Positions 28,799 to 44,788 of a stretch of DNA of 64,000 bases are shown in pieces. Origin of the DNA: an uncultured Chloroflexia bacterium (GTDB taxonomy: Bacteria; Chloroflexota; Anaerolineae; Anaerolineales; Villigracilaceae). The translations under genes were made by a program, and so were the position numbers. The notes below the pieces were generated by a model that did not search any database, had not been told where the DNA came from, and was given only the letters and a program-made list of their open reading frames with translations. The stretch spans positions 14,816 to 78,815 of the forward strand of contig CAWDYX010000020.1 in NCBI GenBank assembly GCA_963806575.1. Reading direction: 5' to 3'. Each line of letters begins with the position of its first letter. Position 1 is the first letter of the stretch.

Positions 28799-30907
28799 TT
28801 ATGGATTGCCAGTCAATCCATTGGCAATGTCAACCGCCTTGAGCTGAAAATAAGCGCTCATGACATCCCTCACAGTTGGCGCAACCACTCTACCGCCCTC
28901 ACCGGCATTGTACATGAAGGCCAAAATAACTATTTCCGGGTTGTCATAGGGGGCATATGCAACCGTCCAGCCATGGGCCGGCCAGTTTCCACGCGTGCAT
29001 TGGTTTTTTGCCATGGCAACATCATCACAGAATTCAGCCGTACCGGTTTTGCCGGCGATTGCGATGGGGTAATTCAGGAACGAAAAATCATGGTTGAGCG
29101 TACCGGCTGGATCGGTCGCGGCCAGGCGCAATCCCGCCTGAAGATTCTGGACCGCCTCTGTTGAAACGGTCTTCATCAGGCCTGTCGCTGTGCACTCCCC
29201 ATTTACACAATTGAAATCCTTGATGATCGGGTCTGTCGTGATGTCCCAGCGCAAACGCGGATTAAAAGGCTGGACGATATTCCCTGCGCTATCCACAATG
29301 TCGTGGATGATGGTCGGTTGCATCTGACGACCATTATTGGCAATCGTGGCGGCTGACATAAGCACCTGCAAGGGGGTTGCCACCACATAGCCCTGGCCTA
29401 CACTGGCGAGGTAAGTATCACCAGTTGACCAGTTTTCGCCCTGGTAGATCCGTTTCCAGGTTGGGTCAGGGATAAGGCCGGAGGCTTCTGCTGGAAGCTC
29501 GATGCCGGAAGGCTGGTTGTATCCCAAAGCCTGTGCATATTGCTGAAGACGCAGGATGCCCAACCCCTGGTCAACCTCACCAGGGTAGCCACCACCCACT
29601 TTATAAAAGCACACATCGCTGGAGCGGGCAATACACTCCAGGAAAGGTATCTTCCCAAGGCCGGCAGTCTGGCCGTAAAAAGTGTAGGTCCAGTCGTAAT
29701 AATATTCCATGGTGCCAGGGTCGGTGGGAGAGAACGTATCCTTCAGACCAATCATGGCTGGAGCATCGATGACCGTTTTGGGAGTAACAACACCCTCGTT
29801 CAAAGCACCCAAGGCGGTTGAAAGTTTGAAAGTGGAACCAGGCGCATATTCTGTTGAAATGGCATAATTGAGCAGGGGGTGTGCGGGGTCTTTCGCCAAC
29901 TGGTTGTAGTAGTATGAAGGGATGATTCGCGCCATCCGGTTATTCTCATACGTCGGATACTGCACCATCGCCAGGATCTCACCTGTCTTGGGATTCATGG
30001 CAATGACAACGCCGCTGGAAATACGATAATAGTGGTTGTAAACATCGTTCCAGTAATCGATGTCGCGTTTCAGGATCGATGCGGCTGCCTGTTGAAGTCG
30101 GGTATCGATCGTCAGAACGACATTATCCCCGGGGATCGGATCGACCGGTGGCTGCAAGTTGCGCAATTCCTGCCCGGCCACATCCACTTCCACGGTGCGT
30201 TGGCCCGGTTTCCCAATCAGGGTATCATTCAATGTTAATTCCACGCCGGCGTACCCAACCTTATCGCGATTGGGCAGAAAATTCTGGGCGCGGTATACCT
30301 TCTCCAGCGCTGCCGGGATGGGGCCTAAAAAGCCGACAATGTTCGCAGTCAACGATCCGGTCGGATAATCACGAACCGGTTGAATATCCACGCCCACGCC
30401 CGGCCAGTCCATTGCATGCTCCCGTACCATCATGGCTATTTTTTCTTCGACATTGCACTGGATTTTTACCGGCAAATATGGGGCATTGGAGAAACCCAAT
30501 TCAACGAACTGCAGGATGCCTGGACCAGGGATACAGGGGGCAAGCAATTTGGCATCCTCGACGGTTCCATGACTGACTGGAATGCCCGTCAAAGCGGAAA
30601 GGTCGCGGTAAATTCGTTGGACATCGCCATCATCATCCGGCAGGTAGGCGGGCGTGATGATGATGTTATACGAAGCAATGTTTCGCGCCAGGATAATCCC
30701 GTTCCGGTCATAGATGATCCCGCGTGACGGAGCAACGCTGATAATGTTCGTACGATTGCTGTCTGTTTCAAGGCTGTATTTTTTTCCATCCAGAATTTGC
30801 AGCTTGAACAAACGGCCTGCAAAGATGACTGCCACCGTACCAAGCAAAACATACACGATCAGGAATCGCCAGGTCTGGAAATGCACCGAACGCGGAGAAG
30901 TTGTCAT
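28799..30907 (-). CDS. mrdA: penicillin-binding protein 2 (elongasome transpeptidase)
   Basis: N-terminal TM helix, STFK active-site motif (PGSTFKLST) and KTGT (AGKTGTAEF). Located next to mreBCD. Confidence 0.9.
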   Translation of the reverse strand: MTTSPRSVHFQTWRFLIVYVLLGTVAVIFAGRLFKLQILDGKKYSLETDSNRTNIISVAPSRGIIYDRNGIILARNIASYNIIITPAYLPDDDGDVQRIYRDLSALTGIPVSHGTVEDAKLLAPCIPGPGILQFVELGFSNAPYLPVKIQCNVEEKIAMMVREHAMDWPGVGVDIQPVRDYPTGSLTANIVGFLGPIPAALEKVYRAQNFLPNRDKVGYAGVELTLNDTLIGKPGQRTVEVDVAGQELRNLQPPVDPIPGDNVVLTIDTRLQQAAASILKRDIDYWNDVYNHYYRISSGVVIAMNPKTGEILAMVQYPTYENNRMARIIPSYYYNQLAKDPAHPLLNYAISTEYAPGSTFKLSTALGALNEGVVTPKTVIDAPAMIGLKDTFSPTDPGTMEYYYDWTYTFYGQTAGLGKIPFLECIARSSDVCFYKVGGGYPGEVDQGLGILRLQQYAQALGYNQPSGIELPAEASGLIPDPTWKRIYQGENWSTGDTYLASVGQGYVVATPLQVLMSAATIANNGRQMQPTIIHDIVDSAGNIVQPFNPRLRWDITTDPIIKDFNCVNGECTATGLMKTVSTEAVQNLQAGLRLAATDPAGTLNHDFSFLNYPIAIAGKTGTAEFCDDVAMAKNQCTRGNWPAHGWTVAYAPYDNPEIVILAFMYNAGEGGRVVAPTVRDVMSAYFQLKAVDIANGLTGNP

Positions 30908-31410
30908 ACTGTTTCCTTCTCCGGATAGAGCCGGTTTGCCAGATCACGAATAAGAGCGTGAACGGGTATGGCGAGCAGCAGGTTCAGCAGAATGGTCGGC
31001 AGGAATATTTGAAGAAAAACTTCACTCAGGGAGAGTGGAACTTCAAAAAGTGTGCGGCGGAGGAACATGAGCATAAGCAACTCCAGCGTACCAATAAGTG
31101 TGACGGCAAACATCACCAGAAGCGGTGCCTGCCAGATGCGATGCGCCATTAAGCGTGCGACGCCGACCGCGGATAAATATCCGATAAGATAAATATACCA
31201 TGGGACACCCGAAACCAGCCCAACCAGCAGCCCGGCCGCAACTCCCCAGATCCAGGCGCCGCTGGCACGCTCGTGCAACCCCCAGGCCACCACCACAAGC
31301 AATACCAAATCGGCGTTACCGCTGAGCAGCATGATCCGGCTGGCTATGGATGTCTGGAGGATGACCGTCAATACCAAAACAGGAATTCCCGTCAGGATGG
31401 CGCGACGCAT
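30904..31410 (-). CDS. mreD: rod shape-determining protein MreD
   Basis: 168-aa polytopic protein between mreC and PBP2. Confidence 0.8.
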   Translation of the reverse strand: MRRAILTGIPVLVLTVILQTSIASRIMLLSGNADLVLLVVVAWGLHERASGAWIWGVAAGLLVGLVSGVPWYIYLIGYLSAVGVARLMAHRIWQAPLLVMFAVTLIGTLELLMLMFLRRTLFEVPLSLSEVFLQIFLPTILLNLLLAIPVHALIRDLANRLYPEKETV

Positions 31411-31411
31411 T

Positions 31412-32263
31412 TTACGGACCTGGTGTCCCGATCAGGGGCGTAATATCCACCGGCTTGAAGTTGGAAATGACAAGGATAAACTGCAGCTGGTTGTAATCCA
31501 CATTCGGCTGGATGGAAGCCTGCTGGAACAATTCGGATTGCAGTTTTCGGACGCTGACCACCTGTCCCACCAGCAAATTGGGCGGGTAGTTGCCACCCAA
31601 ACCGGAGGTCAGCACTACATCCCCAACCTGGACATTTGCATCTTGAGGAATCATATCCAGAGACAGATCGCCGGTAATCGAACCAACCAGCATTGCCTCG
31701 GTGTTGGAGGCCTGCATTCGGACGTTGATGGCCGAGGCAGCATCGGTCACCAGCTGGACGCGGGCTGCCTCCGCAATGACGGCATCCACACGTCCGACCA
31801 GGCCTTTATCGGTAACTACCGGCATCCCTGGCAAAATGCCCTCATTCGAGCCGATATTAATGATGACATAACGGAGGAATGGGCTTGGGTCCCGCCCGAT
31901 AACGGCGGCAGCCTTATAGGAATATTCGGGATTTGCGCGGGCAAAGTCCACCAGGGCGGAAAGGATGTTCGTCTCGGTAACCTGTTGTTGGAGGTCGATC
32001 ACCTGCGTTTGGAGTCGGGCCACATCCCCCTCCAATTGTGCATTGCGGTTCCGCAGGGAGGCCACATCCCGCGGCACTGTCAGAAAATCCACCAGTGTCA
32101 GATAACGGCCGGAAATCCAGGTCTGAGCGTTTACCGTTATGCGTGTGAACCAGTTGGTGACCGGATTGAAATAGCCGCCCAGGGCCAATGCCACCAGGCC
32201 AATTGCCACCAGGACGATCACAACTGTTTGCAGGGAACGTGGAAAACTGGATTTCATAGGCAA
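31412..32263 (-). CDS. mreC: rod shape-determining protein MreC
   Basis: N-terminal TM helix, a coiled-coil segment (LRNRNAQLEGDVARLQTQVIDLQQQ) and a beta-rich C-terminus (VVTDKGLVGRV...). Confidence 0.85.
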   Translation of the reverse strand: MPMKSSFPRSLQTVVIVLVAIGLVALALGGYFNPVTNWFTRITVNAQTWISGRYLTLVDFLTVPRDVASLRNRNAQLEGDVARLQTQVIDLQQQVTETNILSALVDFARANPEYSYKAAAVIGRDPSPFLRYVIINIGSNEGILPGMPVVTDKGLVGRVDAVIAEAARVQLVTDAASAINVRMQASNTEAMLVGSITGDLSLDMIPQDANVQVGDVVLTSGLGGNYPPNLLVGQVVSVRKLQSELFQQASIQPNVDYNQLQFILVISNFKPVDITPLIGTPGP

Positions 32264-32299
32264 CAGGCAAAACCGCGCCAGCGAGACGCGGCCACGCGG

Positions 32300-33367
32300 T
32301 TAGGAATGCCGCGTACTGCCGCGCTCGAGGCCAACTAAATAACGGCGGTAAGTGGAAAAATCGTCCAATACCATGCCGGTACCGCGCACCACGCAGGTCA
32401 GCGGATCTTCAGCGACCCAGGCGTGTAAATTCAATTCATCCGAGAGACGGTCGGCCAACCCCTGCAGCAACGACCCACCCCCTGCCAGGCAAATACCATT
32501 GTCCATCAGGTCGGCCACAATTTCGGGTGGGACTTCATCCAGGGCGTCTTTGATCGTGTCAACGATCACCCCGACTGATTGTGAAAGCGCCTCACGCACC
32601 TCAATGGAAGAAATCTCAATGGATTCAGGCAGGCCCGTTACCAGGTTACGTCCGCGCACCTCTACCGTCTTCTCGACCGGAAGAGGAAAAGCCGAACCAA
32701 TTTCCCATTTTACTTGCTCGGCAATACGTTCACCGATAAGCACATTATATTTATTTCGGACGTATTGGACGATATCCTGATCCATTTCATCGCCCGCCAC
32801 GCGCAGAGACCTGGAAATGACCACGCCACCCATGGACAAGACCGCCACTTCGGTCGTCCCTCCGCCGATATCCACGACCATCGAGCCGCGTATTTCGGAT
32901 ACTGGCAGACCGGCCCCCAGTGCCGCGGAAGTCGGTTCCTCGATAAGATAGGCCTCGCGTGCACCAGCGGACATGCATGCATCGTAAACAGCGCGCTTCT
33001 CAACCTCGGTCACACCGGATGGAATGCCAATTACCACACGCGGGCGCGGCAGTGGCACTACACTTTGCTCGTGTACTTTTCCGATGAAATATTCCAACAT
33101 GGCCTCTGTTATTTCAAATTCTGAGATGACACCATCTCGCACTGGACGCACCACGATAATGTTGCCTGAAGTCCGCCCGACCATTTCCTTGGCATCCAGA
33201 CCAATGGCCATTGGCTGGCGGGAACGCTTGTCTATGGCTACCCATGAAGGTTCATTTATTACGATACCCTTTCCCCGGACATGGACAAGTGTATTTGCAG
33301 TACCCAAATCGATACCAATATCCAGGGAAAAAAGGCCCAGAAGCCAATTGAGTGGGTTAAAAGCCAA
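32300..33367 (-). CDS. mreB: rod shape-determining actin homologue MreB
   Basis: IGIDLGTANTLV, EPSWVAI, VVDIGGGTTEVAV and LAGGGSLLQG motifs. Confidence 0.95.
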   Translation of the reverse strand: MAFNPLNWLLGLFSLDIGIDLGTANTLVHVRGKGIVINEPSWVAIDKRSRQPMAIGLDAKEMVGRTSGNIIVVRPVRDGVISEFEITEAMLEYFIGKVHEQSVVPLPRPRVVIGIPSGVTEVEKRAVYDACMSAGAREAYLIEEPTSAALGAGLPVSEIRGSMVVDIGGGTTEVAVLSMGGVVISRSLRVAGDEMDQDIVQYVRNKYNVLIGERIAEQVKWEIGSAFPLPVEKTVEVRGRNLVTGLPESIEISSIEVREALSQSVGVIVDTIKDALDEVPPEIVADLMDNGICLAGGGSLLQGLADRLSDELNLHAWVAEDPLTCVVRGTGMVLDDFSTYRRYLVGLERGSTRHS

Positions 33368-33490
33368 AGTGGGATGCTCCTACGTGGAATTTCCAGCTTT
33401 TTGATTATACCATGGGGCTTAAAATGACGATTTAAGGATGTTTTTAAGGTTTAAATGGACTAGAAGAAGGCGTTAAGCGAATATACGGCA

Positions 33491-36400
33491 CTATGCGATT
33501 CGTTTCAATGCCAGCATCGTCAGATCATCCGCAGCGGGGAGCGAGTCCATGAACTGGTTCACGGAAGCCTCAAGCGTGTCCAGCACCCCACGCGCCGGGG
33601 ATGTTTCTGCCATCTTCAACACCTCCATCAGGCGCGCCTCCCCGTAAGGTTCATCTTCAGGCGAGAAAGCTTCCGTCAGTCCGTCGGTATACAACAAAAG
33701 AAGATCGTCGAGACCGAGCGAGATGGTCCGTTCACCGATCGAAAAGTCCTCGATGATACCTAAAGCTGCTCCCGTCCGGCGCAAACTCTCGAGCGTCTTC
33801 CCCGCCTTGTTCATCCAAACGGGAGGATTATGCCCGGCATTGGCAAAAGTGAACGCCCCACTTTCCAATGAGAGAACGCCATATACCGCTGTCACGAACA
33901 TCTCCTGGCGATTATCCGGAATGATCAGGGCATTGACGCGGTGCAAGACCTCGGCCGGAGAGGCGGTATCATTAACAACGGCCCGTACCAGGGTGCGCGT
34001 AAGGGCCATGAACAGGGCAGCCGGCATGCCTTTATCGGAAACGTCAGCAATTAACAAACCCAGCTTTCCGCCCGGTAGTTCAATCACATCGTAAAAATCT
34101 CCGCCCACTTGCCGCGCGGTCAGCCAGGTGGCAGCCAGTTCCCAGCCAGGGAATTCAGGCAGGTGCTCTGGCAGGAAGGTTTTTTGGATCTGCCGGGCAA
34201 GCTCAACTTCATGTTCGAGGCGTTCGCGAACCACCATTTCGAGTTGAAGATGCTCGTTCTGAATGCTTAGTACCACCTGCTGGGCAATGCTGTTGACAAT
34301 CTCCACGCGTTTCAAGCGGAAGCGGCGTACATCCGCATCTTCTTCGACGAGCATGACACCATAAAAATCATTCCGGATTACCAGCGGGAAACCAATCAAT
34401 AAATGTTCCCCGGTCTGCAAGGTGTACATGGTTTCCTGCTCATTGCTTGCTAATGCCGGGGTCAGCCAGTCCACAGGGACGGAGGGCGCCAGCAGGCCGA
34501 CGGTCATCTTTGCCCCCTCTCGCACAGCATCCAACAGGGGGAAATCACCGGGGAGGAAGTCGCGTCCCAATATGCTTGGCTGAACATCCTCCGTCAATCC
34601 ATAGGCTTGGGCCGGATGAAAACAGCCTGCCTCCCAAAGGAAGATGGCACACGCCTTAACTCCGACCAGGATGGGTGTGATGCGGACAACACTCCCGATC
34701 ATCTCTTCCAAACTGTTCGAGTTGGCGACTGCCTGGGCCACCTGCAAGAGGGCTGCCGAGGCATAGGCTTGTTCCTGAGCTGCATCATACAGACGGACAT
34801 TCTCGATGGCGACAGATGCATAATTCCCAAAGGTGGAGGTGATGGCCTGGGCCTCGTGGCCATACCGACCCGGTGCATGATGTGTAAGAGTCAGTACGCC
34901 TAGGGGACGGTCACCCGCGCGCAGGGCCGTGGAAATGGAAGAATAATCAGCAGAGAAACCGCGCGCCGCGCCGGTTGGTCCGATCGGATCTTCCGGCTTG
35001 CGAATGACCGGTTGTTGAGAAGCCAGCGTGGAGACGAGATAGTCATACGATTCCGGCCAGTGATGAATTGCATCCTCCACATCCAACCTCTCGGCACCAT
35101 GAATGTGAGCCAGATAGAGCTCCTCGCCTTCCAACAGCCATACAGCCGCCACCTCACAAGGCAGATTGTGCTCCAATTCGTGCAGAACACTGTCCAGCAC
35201 ATCATCCAAGCCCACTTCAGCCGAGATGGATCCAGTCACTTCGCGCAGGCTGTCTGCAACCTGGCGTCTCCAGCGTTCGGTTTGGTACAGGTCGGCATTA
35301 TGGATGGCCGAAGCGACGCTGTCGGCCAGGGCTTCGCACAGGAAATGGTCTTCCTCGGTAAAGGCATCGATATGGTCGCTCTGCAGGTCCAGCACGCCTA
35401 CAACCCGGTTATCGAAGACCAGCGGGATGGTCATTTCAGAACGGGTATCTTCAGGGGAAAACGGAGAAGGCTGGTAACGCGGTTCCTTCGTTACGTCGTT
35501 GGTCAGGATGGCCTGCCCTGTGCGTGCCACCCAGGCAATGATGCCTGCATCATTATCCAGGTCAAGTACAGACCCTTTTAAGGAAGCGCTGCTGGCCCCA
35601 CTCCCGGCTTCGTATATGATCTGACGCCGGTTGGGATGTACGCTAAAGAGATGAACGTATGGGAAATCCAAACGCTCATGGATGAGAACAGCCACTTTAA
35701 TGAGCAACTCTTCCAGATCAAGAATGGAGGTTATGTCATTGCTGACTTCTGCCACCATTTCGAGATGTTCAGCACGCGTGCGCAACTCGTCATACAGGCG
35801 TACACTATTGATGGCTATGGCAATCGTATCGGCCAAAGCCCGAAAGACCAGCAGGTCATTCGGGTGGAATGCCCCCAGACGATCAGACTGCACATCCAAC
35901 ACCCCCAGGATCTGACCCTCAATTTTCAAAGGAAGGACGGCTTCAGACTGGGTCTCCGGCAGCAGATCGAGGAACCGGAAACGCGGCTCGGTATGAACAT
36001 CATTCGTGATGGCCTCCTCACCGGTCCGGGCGACTGATCCTATCAAACCATCCCCCAAACGGATTTTGAGTGGCTTGCCACGACCGCGCGCCTGCCCGGC
36101 GCTCGAACGGAAATTCAGGAATTCCTGGCCTTTCACATGGGTGAAGAGCGCCACATAATAGTAATTAAATGTGCGCTGGATAAGTTTGGTGATCCGCCTG
36201 GTTAATACGTCCAGGTCGAGTACATTGGCTATCTGGGCGTTAACCCGGCGGACAAGGGTCAACTGCTCAACCCGCCACTGGTCCACGGCGAAACGGTGCG
36301 CAGCCACCAGCGCAAGCGATACATGCCCGGCCAACCCTTCCAGAATTTCAATTTCCTTTTTTTGGAACGGCTTGGCAGGACGGCTCACCTGGAGCACGCC

Positions 36401-37135
36401 CATGCAGACATCCCCATTCTTTAGCGGGAACGCAAGCAGTCTCCTTTGCCCCTTTGCAGGATAGGCAATCCCCGTTTTATATGTCTCGAACATCGGCCCA
36501 TCAGGTGGTTGTAGTGGGAATAAAGGCGTCTGGTTCAGACCGGGAAGGCGAAACAGGTTTTCATCCAGCCACAGTTCTGCCTGGCCATTCAGGAGACGGG
36601 CAGCAGCCTCCAGAATGAGGTCACGCCGGGCGGCAAGGGATTCCTTCTGCATCAGCTCATCCCCCAACTGGATGATCTGCCGCCATGTCGTGTCGACCGG
36701 TTCGAATTGAGATTTCAGCTTGCCCGGTTTCAGGCGTTTTACCATCGTAAGAACATTGCCCGATTCCCCCAGCGATTCGAAGTGGACCTCATCCATAAGC
36801 TGCCTCATCAGGAAAACGCCCAGTCCGCCGATGGCTCGGTCATCAATATTTGCTTTCAGGTCCGGGGTACGGACTGTGAAGGGATCAAAAGGTTTTCCGT
36901 GGTCGCGCAATACGAGCGTCAGGCAGACGTCGTTGGATTCACAAGTGAGTTCAATCTCTCCCAGGCCTTCTCCCTGATAGGCATGTTCGATAATATTGGT
37001 ACATGCCTCATCAACAGCCAGTTCAACGGCATAGGTTTCGGAATCATCCATGCCGGCATCGCGGGCTGCCTGGGTGGCAAACCCGCGGATGGTATCCAAC
37101 TGGTCAAATCTGGCAGGAAAAATCGCCGTGCGCAT
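33491..37135 (-). CDS. multidomain sensor: RsbW/SpoIIAB-like serine kinase, multiple GAF domains and a PP2C (SpoIIE/RsbU-type) phosphatase
   Basis: The N-terminus has LAVDEACTNIIEHAY...LRDHGKPFDP (anti-sigma-type HATPase). About 800 aa of repeated GAF-like units follow. The C-terminus has GGDFYDV...IADVSDKGMPAAL...NAGHNPP...LYTDGLTEA. Confidence 0.85.
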   Translation of the reverse strand: MRTAIFPARFDQLDTIRGFATQAARDAGMDDSETYAVELAVDEACTNIIEHAYQGEGLGEIELTCESNDVCLTLVLRDHGKPFDPFTVRTPDLKANIDDRAIGGLGVFLMRQLMDEVHFESLGESGNVLTMVKRLKPGKLKSQFEPVDTTWRQIIQLGDELMQKESLAARRDLILEAAARLLNGQAELWLDENLFRLPGLNQTPLFPLQPPDGPMFETYKTGIAYPAKGQRRLLAFPLKNGDVCMGVLQVSRPAKPFQKKEIEILEGLAGHVSLALVAAHRFAVDQWRVEQLTLVRRVNAQIANVLDLDVLTRRITKLIQRTFNYYYVALFTHVKGQEFLNFRSSAGQARGRGKPLKIRLGDGLIGSVARTGEEAITNDVHTEPRFRFLDLLPETQSEAVLPLKIEGQILGVLDVQSDRLGAFHPNDLLVFRALADTIAIAINSVRLYDELRTRAEHLEMVAEVSNDITSILDLEELLIKVAVLIHERLDFPYVHLFSVHPNRRQIIYEAGSGASSASLKGSVLDLDNDAGIIAWVARTGQAILTNDVTKEPRYQPSPFSPEDTRSEMTIPLVFDNRVVGVLDLQSDHIDAFTEEDHFLCEALADSVASAIHNADLYQTERWRRQVADSLREVTGSISAEVGLDDVLDSVLHELEHNLPCEVAAVWLLEGEELYLAHIHGAERLDVEDAIHHWPESYDYLVSTLASQQPVIRKPEDPIGPTGAARGFSADYSSISTALRAGDRPLGVLTLTHHAPGRYGHEAQAITSTFGNYASVAIENVRLYDAAQEQAYASAALLQVAQAVANSNSLEEMIGSVVRITPILVGVKACAIFLWEAGCFHPAQAYGLTEDVQPSILGRDFLPGDFPLLDAVREGAKMTVGLLAPSVPVDWLTPALASNEQETMYTLQTGEHLLIGFPLVIRNDFYGVMLVEEDADVRRFRLKRVEIVNSIAQQVVLSIQNEHLQLEMVVRERLEHEVELARQIQKTFLPEHLPEFPGWELAATWLTARQVGGDFYDVIELPGGKLGLLIADVSDKGMPAALFMALTRTLVRAVVNDTASPAEVLHRVNALIIPDNRQEMFVTAVYGVLSLESGAFTFANAGHNPPVWMNKAGKTLESLRRTGAALGIIEDFSIGERTISLGLDDLLLLYTDGLTEAFSPEDEPYGEARLMEVLKMAETSPARGVLDTLEASVNQFMDSLPAADDLTMLALKRIA

Positions 37136-37145
37136 AGGAATAACG

Positions 37146-37177
37146 AGGCCGCCTCACAGCCCGAAAGTCGAGGCGGC
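37146..37177 (-). other. GC-rich intercistronic hairpin between the STAS gene and the sensor gene
   Basis: 9-bp perfect stem GGCCGCCTC / GAGGCGGCC, with no clear U-run. Confidence 0.4.
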
Positions 37178-37205
37178 CCGAACTTAGGATGGACATTCGG
37201 ACAGG

Positions 37206-37541
37206 TTAGAAACTACCAACCGCCGCGGTAACGTCGTCAAATATTCTAAAAAGTGGTGTAAAACCGGTCAATTCCAGGGCTTCCATGATTCTCTTGGGTA
37301 CTGCAGCCAGTATCATCTCGCCACGGTTATAGCGCTTGCAGTTCCGCTGCCCGATGAGCAAAGCCCGGAACCCGGCGCTGGACATATACTCCAATTCGCC
37401 CATATCAAAGACGATTTTGAACTGGCCGTCGTGGTTAAGCATCTCGATGGCCTTGGACAGGTCGGGGGCAGTGTAACTATCCACCTTGCCCTTTGCACTG
37501 AGCAAGTCACAATGTTTATAATGCCTCGTTGTGATTTCCAT
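37206..37541 (-). CDS. STAS-domain anti-sigma-factor antagonist (RsbV/SpoIIAA-like)
   Basis: 111 aa with a conserved phosphorylatable Ser context (LEYMSSAGFRALL) and a C-terminal ELTGF motif. Confidence 0.85.
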   Translation of the reverse strand: MEITTRHYKHCDLLSAKGKVDSYTAPDLSKAIEMLNHDGQFKIVFDMGELEYMSSAGFRALLIGQRNCKRYNRGEMILAAVPKRIMEALELTGFTPLFRIFDDVTAAVGSF

Positions 37542-37586
37542 TTGGCCTCCGTTCTGGTTGCTGGTCAGAAATTATATCACGAGAGA

Positions 37587-38912
37587 TTACAGGCCTGCTC
37601 CGAAGATTTCGCCGCCGAGTTTGTATCCGGCCGCTTCCAGGCGCGGCGTGAAGAGCGGTCGCATCTTGGTTGGGCGCAATAGGCCAGTGATTTTGCCTTC
37701 CGGCGTAACACCCGTCTGCTCAAACTTGAAGATATCTGTCAATGTGATCACATCACCTTCCATCCCGGATAGTTCGGTGATGTGGGTCATCCAGCGGGAA
37801 CCATCTGGAAAGCGTGCGAGATGAACAATCAGGTTTATGGCTGCGGCAATCTGCTTGCGGATGGCCAGAAGAGGCATGTCCAGCCCGGCCATCATCGACA
37901 TCGTTTCAAGGCGGGAGGTGCCATCGCGCGGTGAATTGGCATGCAGGGTGGTCAGTGACCCGGTATGTCCGGTGTTCATGGCTTGAAGCATATCCATTGC
38001 CTCGCCGCCGCGTACCTCGCCGACCACAATCCGGTCGGGGCGCATACGCAGGGCATTCCGGACCAGTTCGCGCACGCCAACAGCCCCAGTTCCATCCACA
38101 TTGGGAAGTTTCGTCTCCAAACGTACTACATGTTTCTGTTTGAGCTTCATTTCGACGGCATCCTCAATCGTCACGATCCGCTCATTATCAGGGATAAAGC
38201 CCGAAAGGGCATTCAGTACGGTGGTCTTGCCGGAACTCGTATTACCTGTCACCAGGATATTCAAACGCGTCACTACACAGGCTTCCAGAAATTTCGCCAT
38301 GTATGTGGTCATTGCGTTCATGGCGATCAGATCATCCATGGTCATCTTGGTCTGCAGAAACTTGCGGATGGTGACGTGTGGACCGTCCACGGCCACTGGC
38401 GGGATGACCACATTGACACGCGAGCCGTCTGGCAGGCGGGCATCGGCAGTTGGGTTGTCCGAGTCCACCCGGCGGCCCAGCGGGCTCACGATCCGGTCAA
38501 TGATGCGCAGGAGATGCTCATTATCGTCGAATTGAACGTCCGTCTCGAGCAATTCCCCGTTGCGTTCCACGAAAACATGCTTGGCACCATTTACCATGAT
38601 TTCACTGATCTCAGGATCAGGCAGGAGCAAATCAATGGGACCATAACCGATCAAATCAGACAGCGCGGAATTAATGATCCGGTCGCGCAGGTCGGGCTTG
38701 AGTCCCGCCTTGGTGTTTGTATACACCTCGAGCAGCAGGGTGCGCAATAAGTCCCGGTCGGGCGGTTTCAAAGTGGATTGAGGCTGCATTTCAGGTCTGA
38801 CCGCATCGATCAGGTATTCCTTCAGCTTCACCAGACGCGGGTCTGAAGTGATGAACGCACTGGCACGGTAGATCTCCGACATGGTTGCTTCCTTGGGCAT
38901 GACTCCTGCCAT
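37587..38912 (-). CDS. CpaF/TadA-type type II/IV secretion ATPase
   Basis: Walker A VTGNTSSGKTTVLNAL, Asp box, Walker B and His box (TGHTGSLTTLHANS). The true start may be ATG 38882 (MSEIY). Confidence 0.85.
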   Translation of the reverse strand: MAGVMPKEATMSEIYRASAFITSDPRLVKLKEYLIDAVRPEMQPQSTLKPPDRDLLRTLLLEVYTNTKAGLKPDLRDRIINSALSDLIGYGPIDLLLPDPEISEIMVNGAKHVFVERNGELLETDVQFDDNEHLLRIIDRIVSPLGRRVDSDNPTADARLPDGSRVNVVIPPVAVDGPHVTIRKFLQTKMTMDDLIAMNAMTTYMAKFLEACVVTRLNILVTGNTSSGKTTVLNALSGFIPDNERIVTIEDAVEMKLKQKHVVRLETKLPNVDGTGAVGVRELVRNALRMRPDRIVVGEVRGGEAMDMLQAMNTGHTGSLTTLHANSPRDGTSRLETMSMMAGLDMPLLAIRKQIAAAINLIVHLARFPDGSRWMTHITELSGMEGDVITLTDIFKFEQTGVTPEGKITGLLRPTKMRPLFTPRLEAAGYKLGGEIFGAGL

Positions 38913-39086
38913 CAGATGCCGGTGGGGCTTTGCAGGTTCTTTTCACTGGCAAACGCAGGATCCTTCACTGTAGTATAGCATAGAGGCAATCTTGATCGCA
39001 ATAAACTGACAAAAAACGTTTTTGTAAGGATAATATTTCTTCAGTACATACTGATAAGGGATAACCATGTAGAAATGATATAGTGC

Positions 39087-39177
39087 TGACATCCCCCGAT
39101 ACATCGGGAATCCTCACCGCCGTCCGGGTGGGTCCGGCGCGGCGGAACCCTGCGGATCCCGTCAGGTCCGAAAGGAA
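39087..39177 (+). repeat. truncated duplicate of the SRP RNA promoter and 5' half (left direct repeat)
   Basis: 91 nt align with 42224-42314 with 3 mismatches. The -35 and -10 elements are degraded (CTGACA / AATCCT), and the copy stops inside the conserved GGTCCGAAAGGAA apex. Confidence 0.85.
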
Positions 39178-39299
39178 ACATTTCTTTGTCTGAAATAGCT
39201 GACTTCTTGTCAAAAAAAAGAACCGGTTTCCTGGGAATTGCTGGATATATGAGAAAATGGGCGGTCAATAATCGGCTGCCCATGACAACAAACTTGCTC

Positions 39300-40253
39300 T
39301 TATTTTACCTGCACCAGCACTGCTCTTACGATTATGCGGTATTTGTAGGAATTGCTGGTTTCATCATAACCACGGCAGGTAACCAGCGTGACCCAGGATA
39401 GGTCTTCGTGCTTGAGCAAGGTTGCCGTAGCGTCCGGCGAGACCTGTAGCACACTCCGGACTTCGTAGACGTATTGTACGCCCCAGGCATGGACGATGAT
39501 TTCATCCCCATACCATAACCCATTCAAGTGCACGAATGGTCCCGGTCGGCCGTAGGCATCATAAACATGACCGGTCAGTACCGAGTTCCCGGAATGGGTC
39601 GGGAAAGCCGACCCATTCAGCCATCCGGCATCATTCCCCAGCCAGGATACATCCCATGTCCCATCCTCGGATTGAGGTACACCCACGATCGGCAACTCCA
39701 CACCCATCCGCGGGATCTCCAGCCAAAGGGTACCCAGGTTGGCATAGCGAATGGATGGCTGGGTCAGAAAAGTCACCCTGTTTGGGGCAAAACCAGTGCT
39801 CGGGAGGCTGACAGCCTTTGGCTTAGACCAGGTGGCACTGGCAGAGCCCACGTTTTGTTCGCCAGGATCGGTGGTGTTGCCATTCCCATTCAGATCAGAA
39901 TCAATGGTAGCCTTATTGGTTGCTGAGGTCACACCAGAGTTTAGGGAGGTTTTGAATTGAATAATAAGCTCATTCTTCGCAGCGGCTACATTCTTCGCTC
40001 CAAAATCAGGAGCGATCGATCCGGTCCACACCACCCGTCCACGAGGGTAGGTCAGGCTCGGTTTTTCGTACAGGCAGCTCGTGGTTGTTGTGAGAGTAGA
40101 CGCACCCATGCAGCTCAGACTTCCTTCCACATAGGTCGTGCCTGCCGGGATAGAATCATGGACCGCAGCATTCACCGCCACATGATTTAACCCATTGATC
40201 CAATACATTGTCCAGACCAGGTTCGGCAACCCGGATGAATCCACTACTTTCAC
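39300..40253 (-). CDS. DUF11-like beta domain, LPSTG motif and sortase catalytic domain (C-terminal part of a longer gene)
   Basis: Sortase His (LTGHVYD), Cys (VTLVTCRG) and Arg (YRIIVRAV). LPSTGF lies immediately N-terminal to the sortase fold. The frame stays open upstream to 40697 as Thr/Pro repeats with no canonical start, and is the same frame as ORF 40698..41891. Confidence 0.8.
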
Positions 40254-40289
40254 GCCGAACGGCGGGTTGTAAAGGTGCCAGCGGGGGGT

Positions 40290-41297
40290 AATTGTCGGCG
40301 TTTGAGTGGCGGTCGAAGAGGGGGTAAAGGTCGGTCTGGGCGTCGGGGTGTAGGTTGGGGTAAGGGTGATGGTCGCGGAGGGCGTTAGGGTCAGCGAGGC
40401 CGTCGGGGTGTAGGTTGGAGTATCTGTGTCGGTCGGGGTTAACGTCGGGGTATCTGTCGGCGTATTCGTCGGCGTGGAGGTCGGAGTTGCGGTATTGGTC
40501 GGCGTGAAGGTCGGAGTATTAGTGTCCGTCGGGGTATAGGTCGGCGTGTGTATCTGTAGGCGTGTAGGTTGGAGTATCCGTGTCTGTCGGCGTGTAGGTT
40601 GGAGTATCCGTGTCTGTCGGGGTGTAGGTTGGAGTATCCGTATGCGTCGGGGTGTAGGTTGGGGTATGAGGGTAATGGTCGCGTGAGGGCGTTAGGGTCA
40701 GCGAGTGTCCGTCGGGGTGTAGGTCGGAGTATTTGTGTCGGTCGGGGTTAACGTCGGGGTATCTGTCGGCGTATTCGTCGGCGTGGAGGTCGGAGTTGCG
40801 GTATTGGTCGGCGTGAAGGTCGGAGTATTAGTGTCCGTCGGGGTGTAGGTCGGTGTATCCGTATCCGTCGGGGTGTAGGTTGGAGTATTGGTGTCGGTCG
40901 GGGTTAACGTCGGGGTATCTGTCGGCGTATTCGTCGGCGTGGAGGTCGGAGTTGCGGTATTGGTCGGCGTGAAGGTTGGAGTATCCGTGCCTGTCGGCGT
41001 GTAGGTTGGTGTATCCGTATCCGTCGGCGTATAGGTCGGAGTATTGGTGTCGGTCGGGGTTAACGTCGGGGTATCTGTCGGCGTATTCGTCGGCGTGGAG
41101 GTCGGAGTTGCGGTATTGGTCGGCGTGAAGGTCGGAGTATTAGTGTCCGTCGGGGTGTAGGTGGTGTACGTTGGCGTGAAGGTCGGAGTATCCGTGTCCG
41201 TTGGAGTGTGGGTCGGTGTATCCGTCGGCGTAAAGGTCGGAGTATCTGTGTGCGTCGGGGTATAGGTCGGGGTTTCCGTGTTCGTCGGAGTTGCAGT
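40290..41297 (-). repeat. tandem 156-bp (52-codon) coding repeats encoding a (T-P-T-x) linker
   Basis: The block GTCGGGGTTAACGTCGGGGTATCTGTCGGCGTATTCGTCGGCGTGGAGG recurs at 40431, 40741, 40897 and 41053. The last three are spaced 156 nt apart. 30-nt sub-repeats lie at 40560-40650. Confidence 0.9.
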
Positions 41298-41891
41298 GGG
41301 TAAAGTCGTGTCTTGCACCCACAGCCAGTATTCATGACAATCGCGAATGGAATGTCCGTAAAGGGGTCCCCATTGGGTCTCCTCAACATAATACCAGCCA
41401 TCGGCAGGGGCAGTCCATGTAATCAAACTATCCCGGTAGAAGTAATACCCCATGTACCAGGTAGTCCACCCCACATCATCATCGAAAGCTAACTGCGTAA
41501 CGCCATCCGGGGCATAGAGGTAGAGGTATGTGTCATTGGCGGCAACATCACCTGAATTGATGTCATTTATCAGCTGAGTCCTGATCTCATAATCATCGCC
41601 ACTGAATGCATAAAACGTTACCCAGTCCTGCTCGCTTGGAGGATTCGTGTTTATATGAAATTGGCGTGTACCATCGGTGGGGACAATACTAGCTTGCAGG
41701 TAGGTGTTATCAGGTTCGTAACTATCATTTTCACATAAAGGAGGTGGTTGGTCTCTCGACGCCGCCAAGACAGGCCGGGTCTGGGCAGCAAAGGTAAGCA
41801 CCAGGATCAACGCCACAATTCGCCCCATAAGCAAAAATAGTTTGCCTGGTTGATCTTTAGGCTTCTTTATATGCATGTCTCTTTCCACCAA
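40698..41891 (-). CDS. secreted protein: signal peptide, PPC (pre-peptidase C-terminal)-like domain and long Thr/Pro repeat linker (N-terminal part of the longer gene)
   Basis: Signal/anchor [23 protein letters not shown]-like block [11 protein letters not shown]...[17 protein letters not shown]...[14 protein letters not shown] repeats then run to TGA at 40698-40700. Confidence 0.8.
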
Positions 41892-42222
41892 ACACCTTCC
41901 AGGTTACGGGGAGGACGGCCCAGACACAAAAGAGACAATGTGATTAATCCCTTTTCAAATTTAAAATAGGAAAAAGGGCAAGAATACCGTCAGCGTCCCG
42001 CAAATCTGGCTCGACTCAATAATAACCTAAAGAAATCACTTCCTTTTTGGACCAATGGTAATTCGGCTCTGCGGGGATAAGAACAATAACAAAAAAAAGT
42101 ACCTTTTACGGTAAAAAGGTTGTAATAATTATTTGCCTATATGATTATATTCTAATATTGTCTAATGTATATAAATAAATTGATTCCTTTTCTTCTGGAT
42201 AACATGAGGAGACCAAACGCGG

Positions 42223-42251
42223 TTGACATCCCCCGATACATCGGGTATCCT
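42223..42251 (+). promoter_or_regulatory. sigma-70-type promoter of the SRP RNA gene
   Basis: TTGACA (42223-42228), a 17-nt spacer and TATCCT (42246-42251). Confidence 0.7.
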
Positions 42252-42257
42252 CACCGC

Positions 42258-42366
42258 CGTCCGGGTGGGTCCGGCGCGGCGGAGCCCTGCGAATCCCGTC
42301 AGGTCCGAAAGGAAGCAGCGGTAAGAAGGTGTCTCCGGGTGCCGCCGGGTCTCCTGCCCGGACATT
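42258..42366 (+). ncRNA. ffs: signal recognition particle RNA (small, 4.5S type)
   Basis: Conserved domain IV GTCAGGTCCGAAAGGAAGCAGC with a GAAA tetraloop. The 5' GTCCGGG pairs with the 3' CCCGGAC. The ends are approximate. Confidence 0.85.
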
Positions 42367-42435
42367 TTATTTAATGTCATCACAAGTTCGCTGATATAAT
42401 ACCCCCCATCATTATCCTATTTCAGGAGTTCGTGT

Positions 42436-43857
42436 ATGGCCTTCAAAATCACCTTTGGTACCGATGGCTGGCGCGGTGTCATTGCCGAGGATTACACCTT
42501 CGATAACGTCCGTCGCTGCACTCAGGGTTTCGCCAATTACCTGGTCGAAAAAGGCCGGCAGGGTCAATGGGTGGTGGTTGGGCATGATAAACGTTTCGAT
42601 AGTGAGTTCTTTGCCGCGGCGGTAGCCGAAGTGCTGGTCGGCAACGGGCTGAAAGTGTACCTGACGAATGGAGCCACTCCCACCCCGGTGATTGCCTTCT
42701 CTGTGGTGGACAAAAAGGCCGGTGGAGCGGTCAACATCACCGCCTCGCATAACCCCGGCACCGACAACGGTTTCAAGGTCCGCAACGAGTTCGGTGGCGC
42801 CATCGACCCGGATGGGCTGCTGAAGATCGAGGCGCTCATTCCCGCTTCCGTGGCAGCGGTGAAACGGAAAGCTTATAAAAACGCCCAGGCGGCCGGAGAG
42901 ATAGTCATGTTTGACCCGGTTAAGCCCTACGAAGCCCATATCAACAAGCTGATCGACCTGCAGCCCATCCAGCAGGCCGGCCTGACCGTGCTGGTGGATT
43001 GCATGTGGGGCAATGGTGCAGGTTATTTCCCGCGCCTGCTGGCCGGCGGCAAGACCAAAGTAATCGAGATCCATAACCAGCGCAACCCGCTCTTTCCCGA
43101 AATGATCCGCCCCGAACCCATCCCTCCCAACATCAACGTTGGCCTGCAGGCCACCCTCGAAAACCATGCCGATGTGCTGCTCATCACCGATGGCGATGCC
43201 GACCGTGTGGGCGTGGGCGATGAGAACGGGCAGTTTGTCAACCAGCTGCGCGTCTACGGTTTGCTGGCATACTACCTGCTGGAGGTCCGCGGGCTGCGCG
43301 GTGCCATTGTCAAGACCCTCTCCACCACCGGCATGCTCAACAAACTTGGGCAGATCTACAACGTCCCGGTCTATGAAACCGGTGTGGGCTTCAAATATGT
43401 GGCTCCCAAGATGCTCGAGACGGATGCTCTGATCGGCGGCGAGGAAAGCGGCGGCTACGCTTTCCGCGGTAATGTGCCTGAACGTGATGGCATCCTGGCC
43501 GGGTTGTACATCCTCGACCTGATGGTACGGCTCGGCAAGCAGCCTTCGGAACTGCTCAAGTTGCTCTTCGCCAGGGTGGGAGGCGAGTACTTCTACGACC
43601 GCATCGACCGCCCCTTCAGCGGCAGCCACGCTGACCGTAAAAAGATGATCCTGGACGCAAACCCGCAGACCATCGGCGGCTTGAAAGTGGTCCAACTCGT
43701 CACGGTGGACGGCTTCCAGTTCAAACTCGAAGATGGCGGTTGGATGCTCATCCGCTTTTCTGGTACCGAACCCATCATGCGTGTCTATTGCGAGACGATG
43801 CACGCTGATAAAGTGCAGGCCATCCTGCAGGACGGTTTGAAGATCGCCGGCCTTTAA
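42436..43857 (+). CDS. alpha-D-phosphohexomutase family (phosphoglucomutase/phosphomannomutase)
   Basis: FGTDGWRG, the active-site Ser loop [14 protein letters not shown], the metal loop TDGDADR and GGEESGG. Confidence 0.9.
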
Positions 43858-43930
43858 TAGACTAGTGTCAAGGGTTCCGGTGTCAGGTGTCAACAAACAC
43901 TGGCACACTTGATACGGGACAACGGGATAC

Positions 43931-44788
43931 GTGACCCTTACAGACACCCATTGCCATTTGGACATGGACAAATTCGACTCCGACCGGGAAGCCGTGCTGG
44001 AACGTTCTGCCCAGGCCGGTGTGGTCCGCATTTTGATCCCGGGACTCAACCTCGCCTCCAGCCGGACCGTCCTCAAACTGGCCGGAAGCCATCCCATGCT
44101 CTTCGCGGCGGTTGGTGTCCATCCCACCGAGGCAGGCACTTGGACAAAAGAAACCAGGGATGAACTGAGAAACCTCTTCAAGCCCTCAGGCACGTCAGAA
44201 ACCTCAGGTTCGTCAAGAATCGTCGCCATCGGCGAAATCGGGCTGGATTATTACTGGGACTCCGCGCCTCACGATCTCCAGAAAACCGTCCTGCAGATGC
44301 AGCTGACTCTGGCGGCTGAAGCTGGTTTTCCGGTCATTCTGCATATGCGCGAAGCCAGGGATGAACCGAACGGGAATTGCGCCGGAGATCTTCTGCAAAT
44401 CCTGGAGGAATGGTGCTCAGGACTGCGCGCTGCGAAGAGTCCGCTGGCAGAGCGACCCGGTGTACTGCACTCCTTTTCCGGGACTCTGGAATCGGCGCAG
44501 GCCGCGCTGAGTCTCGGATTCTACCTCGGGGTGAGCGGCCCCGTCACCTTCGAGAACGCCGCCAGCCGACAGGAAATCGCCGCGGCGTTACCTCTGGATC
44601 GTGTTCTACTTGAAACGGATGCCCCCTTCCAGGCTCCCCAACCGCATCGCGGAAAACGCAACGAACCGGCCTATGTTCGCCTGATTGCTGATAAAATTGC
44701 CTTGCTCCATTCATGCAGCTTGGAGCGGGTCGCCGCAGTCACCAGCGGGAATGCCCGCAGGCTTTTTGGTTGGAAAGAGACAGCTTGA
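43931..44788 (+). CDS. tatD: TatD-family metal-dependent hydrolase
   Basis: LTDTHCHLD at the N-terminus, then GEIGLDY, HMRE, VLHSFSG and ETDAP. Confidence 0.85.
   Translation: MTLTDTHCHLDMDKFDSDREAVLERSAQAGVVRILIPGLNLASSRTVLKLAGSHPMLFAAVGVHPTEAGTWTKETRDELRNLFKPSGTSETSGSSRIVAIGEIGLDYYWDSAPHDLQKTVLQMQLTLAAEAGFPVILHMREARDEPNGNCAGDLLQILEEWCSGLRAAKSPLAERPGVLHSFSGTLESAQAALSLGFYLGVSGPVTFENAASRQEIAAALPLDRVLLETDAPFQAPQPHRGKRNEPAYVRLIADKIALLHSCSLERVAAVTSGNARRLFGWKETA

Follow-up and report, generated by a model that had tools for sequence, protein, structure and literature searches.

The window analysed here is the whole stretch of 64,000 nt, which forms part of contig C20 of a 3.4-Mb metagenome-assembled genome of the Anaerolineales (90.6% complete). 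Between positions 28799 and 38912 it carries seven minus-strand genes, encoding a CpaF/TadA-type ATPase (cpaF-A), a STAS protein, a 1214-aa protein with kinase, GAF and PP2C domains (the kinase-GAF-PP2C protein), MreB, MreC, MreD and a PBP2-type transpeptidase (pbp2). The gaps measure 45 nt between cpaF-A and the STAS gene, 70 nt between the STAS gene and the kinase start, and 123 nt before mreB. A first-pass annotation of this DNA had described the first three open reading frames (ORFs) as a minus-strand run with short gaps, followed directly and on the same strand by mreBCD, and had proposed that the output of this partner-switching module may be the ATPase rather than a sigma factor. The three ORFs were found where that annotation had placed them, and Pfam matches confirmed mreBCD directly downstream, with pbp2 after it. 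The genes and domains of the locus are as follows.

37587-38912, minus strand: cpaF-A, orphan CpaF/TadA-type ATPase paralogue (PF00437, T2SSE, E 3.9e-66)
37206-37541, minus strand: STAS protein of the anti-sigma-antagonist family, 111 aa (PF01740; TIGR00377; aligned to SpoIIAA 1th8_B and TM1442 1sbo)
37377-37379, minus strand: codon of the predicted phospho-acceptor Ser55 of the STAS protein, the second Ser of YMSSAGF
33491-37135, minus strand: kinase-GAF-PP2C protein, 1214 aa, single ORF, with STAS 70 nt upstream
36731-37135, minus strand: RsbW-type serine kinase domain, residues 1-135 (PF13581, HATPase_c_2, match over residues 6-133, E 1.5e-32)
34256-36688, minus strand: array of five GAF-like domains, three clear and two divergent
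33500-34075, minus strand: PP2C (SpoIIE/RsbU-type) phosphatase domain, residues 1021-1212 (PF07228, E 1.2e-50)
28799-33367, minus strand: mreBCD-pbp2 block, downstream of the STAS/kinase-GAF-PP2C cassette
32300-33367, minus strand: mreB, TTG start (Pfam match)
31412-32263, minus strand: mreC (Pfam match)
30904-31410, minus strand: mreD (Pfam match)
28799-30907, minus strand: pbp2, PBP2-type transpeptidase (Pfam match)

The STAS/kinase-GAF-PP2C cassette

The STAS protein scored 64.3 bits against TIGR00377 (anti-sigma factor antagonist; cut-off 53.45), and this match, PF01740 and the alignment to SpoIIAA agree with its earlier prediction as an RsbV-like protein with the phosphorylatable Ser in YMSSAGF. 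Ser55 could be aligned with the DSSG-motif serine of the SpoIIAA structure 1th8_B, the phospho-acceptor in B. subtilis SpoIIAA.

In the 1214-aa protein, the Pfam domains bore out the order of an N-terminal RsbW-type kinase, a GAF array and a C-terminal PP2C domain. The N-box, G1 and G2 motifs of the kinase (E..N..H, D.G..FD and GGLG.(F/Y)LM..LMDEV) align with RsbW (6m36). The clear GAF domains span residues 307-442, 473-612 and 643-779, and the divergent ones about 150-290 and 810-960; no match to the Response_reg (REC) domain was found in the protein, and the five GAF-like domains hold the input position. The conserved Asp motifs of the PP2C domain (GGDFYD, ADVSD, YTDG and ADD) align with 3ke6 and 3es2. 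The nearest solved PP2C structures were Rv1364c (3ke6, E 1e-14, best score) and 3es2/3eq2, a 'probable two-component response regulator' that is presumably P. aeruginosa PA3346 (HsbR). Genome-wide, the kinase domain of the cassette reached 117.6 bits for HATPase_c_2 and every other match stayed at or below 37; the genome holds three STAS proteins and six clear SpoIIE-type phosphatase matches in total.

No sigma-70-family gene was found within the window, and the sole sigma-70-family match on the contig lies ~10 kb before the window start, in line with the earlier observation that no sigma factor is adjacent. On their domains and motifs, the STAS and kinase-GAF-PP2C proteins are best read as a self-contained partner-switching cassette without a sigma gene. 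That the predicted kinase and phosphatase for the STAS partner sit on one sensor polypeptide had been read correctly at the domain level; such an arrangement is not new, as SypE, HsbR, CrsR and Rv1364c precede it. At least 180 clusters (90% identity, public data) carry PF13581, GAF and PF07228, and these are named solely 'GAF domain-containing protein' or 'RsbU', so that the cassette points to a family with generic annotation only.

The cassette was followed outside the genus in 14 loci from at least five families. The recurrent neighbours of the GAF-PP2C gene were the STAS gene and, mostly, a small kinase gene, and no recurring CpaF, mreB or sigma gene was found near the cassette in these loci from other genera and families. 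Within the family, four genomes from other genera were sampled; in these, mreB lies on another contig than the cassette or ~1.9 Mb from it, and the best CpaF matches are likewise located elsewhere. Because nothing else recurs outside the genus, the conserved unit consists of STAS, kinase and GAF-PP2C alone.

Outgroup genera and basal lineages of the genus encode the kinase on an ORF of its own, 134-139 aa long; among basal congeners, this ORF typically ends in a TGA that shares bases with the start codon of the following GAF-PP2C gene (ATGA overlap). One continuous frame of 1214 aa is found only in the crown clade to which the window belongs. The ancestral order was STAS-kinase-phosphatase in separate genes, and these gene arrangements indicate that the one-polypeptide form arose within the genus by fusion of an rsbW-like gene to the downstream GAF-PP2C gene.

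Judged by its domain content, the cassette is a GAF-input variant of known bifunctional partner-switching regulators. Vibrio fischeri SypE likewise combines an N-terminal RsbW-type kinase, a central input and a C-terminal PP2C domain on one polypeptide (PMC10120452), and its partner SypA is a single-domain STAS protein with Ser56 (predicted Ser55 here); no sigma factor is co-encoded in either case. In contrast to the five GAF-like domains found here, the input of SypE is a REC domain fed by a phosphorelay, and SypE-SypA is encoded in a polysaccharide (syp) locus whereas the cassette has no conserved functional neighbour; past the shared domains there is no close sequence kinship. In the P. aeruginosa HsbR-HsbA and Shewanella CrsR-CrsA systems, a bifunctional protein with PP2C and RsbW-like kinase/anti-sigma domains also sets the phosphorylation of a STAS antagonist (PMC6482189, PMC5085249), and the outputs, RpoS, FlgM and the cyclase HsbD, are unlinked (PMC6482189, PMC5085249). 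These proteobacterial proteins have the order REC-PP2C-kinase, with REC input and a C-terminal kinase, whereas here the kinase is N-terminal and the input is GAF. M. tuberculosis Rv1364c, whose solved PP2C structure (3ke6) gave the best score, carries a PAS sensor, PP2C, an RsbW-like kinase and STAS together on a single multidomain chain, whereas the cassette encodes STAS in its own gene and has a GAF array in place of the PAS sensor. The RsbU/RsbV/RsbW-SigB and SpoIIE/SpoIIAA/SpoIIAB-SigF systems of B. subtilis use the same STAS, GHKL kinase and PP2C modules with conserved motifs, but none of the genomes examined has a cognate sigma gene within the cassette or close to it.

Retention and loss of cpaF-A

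The product of cpaF-A is ~55% identical to the Caulobacter CpaF structures 8rkd/9e24 over residues 56-427 (E 1.4e-115 against 8rkd), and its P-loop (GNTSSGKTT), GEVRG and HANS motifs line up with those of Caulobacter CpaF. Together with the PF00437 match, this alignment upheld the assignment as a CpaF/TadA-like ATPase; the NCBIfam equivalog cut-off was missed (best model TIGR03819, 326 bits against 373.15). Since the homologues are nearly all 431 aa long, the true start is probably Met11 at 38882, which gives 431 aa. CpaF of Caulobacter crescentus is a bifunctional Tad pilus motor (PMC6920026, PMC11300603, PMC12019362), with which CpaF-A shares the ATPase core and the nucleotide-binding motifs. 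Unlike it, CpaF-A has no long N-terminal extension and no co-encoded TadB/TadC, pilin or CpaE.

In a Pfam survey of the neighbours of 37587-38912, no TadB/TadC, Flp pilin or CpaE/TadZ genes were found. The genome's only PF00482 matches are on contig C13, which agrees with the reported lack of TadB/TadC genes beside the ATPase. A tad locus and sigma factor elsewhere that clearly pair with the three genes had been named as a finding that would speak against the proposal, and a complete tad locus was identified on C13, with two tandem Flp-like pilins, RcpC/CpaB, a REC-ParA protein (CpaE/TadZ-like), its own 471-aa CpaF, TadB and TadC. The same arrangement in Anaerolineales has been described by Xia et al. 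(PMC4877987). The two tandem pilin genes, upstream of the tad locus at C13:13400-14300, are near-identical and of Flp type, with ~52-aa cores (GLVEYALILVLVAV...); their Pfam Flp_Fap score of 32.0 is slightly below the cut-off of 32.2.

CpaF-A shares 52% identity with the CpaF of the C13 tad locus. When CpaF homologues were placed in a tree with Caulobacter CpaF as root, those from tad loci grouped in one clade (support 0.998) and the copies related to CpaF-A (class A) in another (support 1.0), the latter being nested among other 'orphan' CpaFs of the Anaerolineales (class B). Class A was seen in this genus only and, where kept, is well conserved (72-94% identity). CpaF-A is a third-type paralogue, often lost and distinct from the tad-locus CpaF, and on this sequence comparison is best described as a dispensable, genus-specific extra Tad-type motor paralogue.

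The class B gene belongs to an operon with genes for a histidine kinase, a GAF-histidine kinase, an OmpR-type regulator, REC-ParA, DUF6812, CpaF, double-HTH, TPR and GNAT proteins. This operon is conserved order-wide (L017:4952-13870; also L014, L022, L024 and L025), and includes a DsbA-like protein and no TadB/C. In the genome of the window (G000) it is present on contig C26 at ~35000-43400 (histidine kinase, GAF-histidine kinase, OmpR-type regulator, REC-ParA, HTH, TPR, GNAT and DsbA-like) without CpaF and DUF6812, and just 177 nt separate the REC-ParA gene from the HTH gene. Complementarity of class A and class B CpaF was considered and rejected: the counts of ~16/14/14/9 for A+B+/A+B-/A-B+/A-B- gave no association.

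The distribution of cpaF-A was surveyed across the GTDB genus: of 52 further genomes searched, 50 carry the kinase-GAF-PP2C protein. Matches of at least 68% identity were counted as class A CpaF and their positions were combined with the coordinates of the kinase-GAF-PP2C gene, with the following result.

cpaF-A directly upstream of STAS: 26/50 genomes
cpaF-A adjacent, truncated: 1/50 genomes
cpaF-A parted from the cassette by a contig end: 1/50 genomes
cpaF-A elsewhere in the genome: 2/50 genomes (G070, beside a giant sortase-fusion gene; G063)
cpaF-A not detected: 20/50 genomes

Nine of the 20 genomes in the last group are 95-98% complete. In 27 congeneric loci inspected by tblastn, the order STAS, kinase-GAF-PP2C, mreB, mreC, mreD, pbp2 was invariant (27/27). 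Upstream of STAS, 3' remnants of cpaF-A could be identified in G068 (158 nt), in G066 (327 nt) and in G100, G072 and G076 (~24-30 nt each), with none in seven others, and the deletions in the cpaF-less loci end at four or more different points; in G100, the region of the cpaF promoter runs straight into the last 24 nt of the gene. In a tree of the STAS and kinase-GAF-PP2C proteins rooted with four other genera, genomes with cpaF-A are found on both deep and shallow branches, and losses are spread over at least 5-6 distinct branches. Because of this tree pattern and the 3' stubs, it is concluded that cpaF-A was ancestral to the genus at the position upstream of STAS and was repeatedly deleted. 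At each loss, the STAS and kinase-GAF-PP2C genes are intact and conserved. The three genes are thus not a syntenic triad in the relatives: cpaF-A is missing in 20 of the 50 congeners that have the cassette and lies elsewhere in two, and no CpaF gene is adjacent to the cassette in the other genera and families examined.

The flank beside cpaF-A is variable and contains a partial and an intact copy of the signal recognition particle (SRP) RNA gene.

39087-39180, plus strand: partial SRP RNA gene copy (5' half), 96% identical to 42224-42317, marking the variable flank beside cpaF-A
42263-42362: intact SRP RNA gene

In relatives, SRP RNA sequence adjoins cpaF-A or, where cpaF-A is deleted, is located a few hundred nt from STAS. 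The flank at 38913-42362, from cpaF-A to the SRP RNA gene, is a hot spot in which presence and absence of cpaF-A and of the sortase-fusion gene occur in all four combinations among relatives. In G070, cpaF-A directly follows a 2997-aa sortase-fusion ORF, away from STAS.

Predicted transcription units

Four conserved promoter-like or hairpin elements could be read directly from the intergenic and upstream sequences.

38972-38980, minus strand: predicted extended -10 element TGCTATACT of cpaF-A, part of a promoter-like match at 39001-38972
37571-37579, minus strand: predicted extended -10 element TGATATAAT of the STAS/kinase-GAF-PP2C unit, 8 nt past the cpaF stop and ~30 nt before the STAS ATG
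33404-33412, minus strand: predicted extended -10 element TGGTATAAT of mreBCD-pbp2, before the mreB TTG start
37147-37178, minus strand: GC-rich hairpin, GGCCGCCTC - 14-nt loop - GAGGCGGCC, between STAS and the kinase start

The element TGCTATACT was found upstream of the cpaF-A start in 13 of the 16 loci compared. TGaTATAAT or TGtTATAAT precedes the STAS ATG by a constant distance in 25/28 congeneric loci, with or without cpaF-A, and TGGTATAAT is kept in place before mreB in 27/28. The conservation of these predicted -10 elements amid variable flanks argues for three transcription units.

The stem of the hairpin occurs in almost every congeneric locus and also in further genera of the family. 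Compensatory changes were observed at 2 of its 10 pairs, and the loop is free in sequence and ~12-21 nt long. The sole Shine-Dalgarno-like GAGG before the kinase ATG sits in the 3' arm of the hairpin, 16 nt from the start codon. The hairpin is a candidate attenuator or translation-control element and may plausibly lower the expression of the kinase/phosphatase protein relative to STAS.

Candidate outputs and rival explanations

The explanation preferred here, with a probability of roughly 60%, is that the run consists of three units, each with its own promoter, whose proximity reflects descent and which do not form one functional triad: a sigma-less STAS/kinase-GAF-PP2C switch, a dispensable CpaF and an ordinary mreBCD-pbp2 operon. 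CpaF-A is then probably a neighbour of the switch and not its target. The proposal that the ATPase is the output does not agree with the broken synteny of the three genes, with the separate tad locus, or with the conserved promoter-like element that STAS has of its own. Several observations weigh against the three-unit explanation. The promoter elements are consensus matches only, and no strong terminator was predicted between cpaF-A, the STAS unit and mreB; therefore, read-through transcription is possible. Where cpaF-A is retained, it nearly always directly precedes STAS, on the same strand and across a gap of 45-120 nt in which no strong terminator was predicted. The adjacency of cassette and mreBCD in 27/27 congeneric loci could mean function as well as descent.

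In the proposed mechanism, the GAF array would sense a ligand or state and bias the 1214-aa protein between phosphorylation of STAS Ser55 by the N-terminal kinase and its dephosphorylation by the C-terminal PP2C domain. The phosphorylation state of STAS would in turn decide the binding partners of STAS and of the kinase domain. The target of the switch would be encoded away from the cassette. By analogy with CrsR/HsbR and RpoS, the kinase domain may sequester a non-primary RpoD-like sigma factor, which is set free when unphosphorylated STAS takes its place; the kinase domains of CrsR and HsbR bind RpoS (PMC6482189). Alternatively, the target may be an unlinked protein bound by STAS itself, in the manner of SypA and HsbA. 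CpaF-A, from its own promoter, would most plausibly work with the TadB/TadC platform of the C13 tad locus, or have another role, and mreBCD-pbp2 would be an ordinary elongasome operon with its own promoter.

Eleven sigma-70-family proteins are encoded in the genome. Four are RpoD-like (390-540 aa), seven resemble extracytoplasmic function sigma factors, and none of the eleven is of SigB/SigF size. The 540-aa RpoD-like sigma factor on contig C25 is universal, with a full-length orthologue in 61/61 genomes of the order, whereas RsbW-like kinases were found in 37/61. Because there are several RpoD-like paralogues and the kinase of the cassette is the sole clear RsbW-type kinase domain in the genome, a kinase-bound sigma factor of the non-primary, RpoD-like kind is weakly favoured as the target over a client bound by STAS. 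Two of the RpoD-like sigma genes (399 and 408 aa; C28:111889-112221 and C21:82513-82725) are near-identical over their full length, which may reflect a recent duplication or an assembly/binning duplicate.

Two other connections between the neighbouring genes were weighed against the three-unit explanation. CpaF-A could be a facultative client where it is kept, with phosphorylated or unphosphorylated STAS docking on the ATPase hexamer and gating an accessory Tad motor. The same-strand position with a short gap, the adjacency in 26-28 genomes, the missing predicted terminator between cpaF-A and STAS, the absence of a nearby sigma gene and the 72-94% identity of the gene where present would all fit such a role, and regulation of an ATPase by a STAS protein has a precedent in MlaB, which regulates the MlaF ATPase (MlaFB). 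However, 20 of the 50 congeners lost cpaF-A by several independent deletions and kept the switch, two genomes hold cpaF-A apart from STAS, and the cassette occurs order-wide without a nearby CpaF. In addition, the STAS promoter element is kept regardless of cpaF-A, which has a conserved promoter element of its own. A facultative client role of CpaF-A is considered quite unlikely.

Recruitment of the switch to the elongasome within the genus is also judged improbable. GAF signals would here tune mreBCD-pbp2, by read-through or by binding of STAS or the kinase to an elongasome component, and so control rod or filament elongation. The invariant order from STAS to pbp2 and a 123-nt gap before mreB in which nothing terminator-like was predicted are consistent with such a connection, and a loose precedent is the reported contact of the B. 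subtilis PP2C protein SpoIIE with the morphogenic protein RodZ (PMC4945075). Against this, in four other genera of the family and in further families, cassette and mreB are found on different contigs or 20-90 kb or more apart, and a strongly conserved extended -10 element precedes mreB itself. Gene order past pbp2 is kept just as well throughout the genus; therefore, descent alone can explain the adjacency of cassette and mreB. A broader version, in which the sigma-less GAF-kinase-PP2C/STAS switch was captured at the head of the mreBCD-pbp2 operon and couples a metabolic or ligand signal to elongation or filament growth, with CpaF as an optional second client in the species that retain it, is likewise improbable.

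The value of the three-unit explanation is mostly negative: it cautions against taking gene adjacency as wiring, and CpaF as output is no longer the default hypothesis. Partner switches that act on non-sigma targets are an active topic (SypE/SypA, HsbR/HsbA), and the locus offers a well-sampled natural series in uncultured filamentous Anaerolineales, with three-gene and fused two-gene forms, GAF-array input and repeated loss of CpaF.

Beyond the run, two overlapping ORFs in the window were assigned. The plus-strand ORF at 42436-43857 was considered as dnaX, which was rejected, and it is a gene of the phosphoglucomutase/phosphomannomutase family. The 605-aa minus-strand ORF at 42412-44229 is probably spurious, because it has no Pfam match and is antisense to this gene; the plus-strand ORF is the real gene of the overlapping pair.

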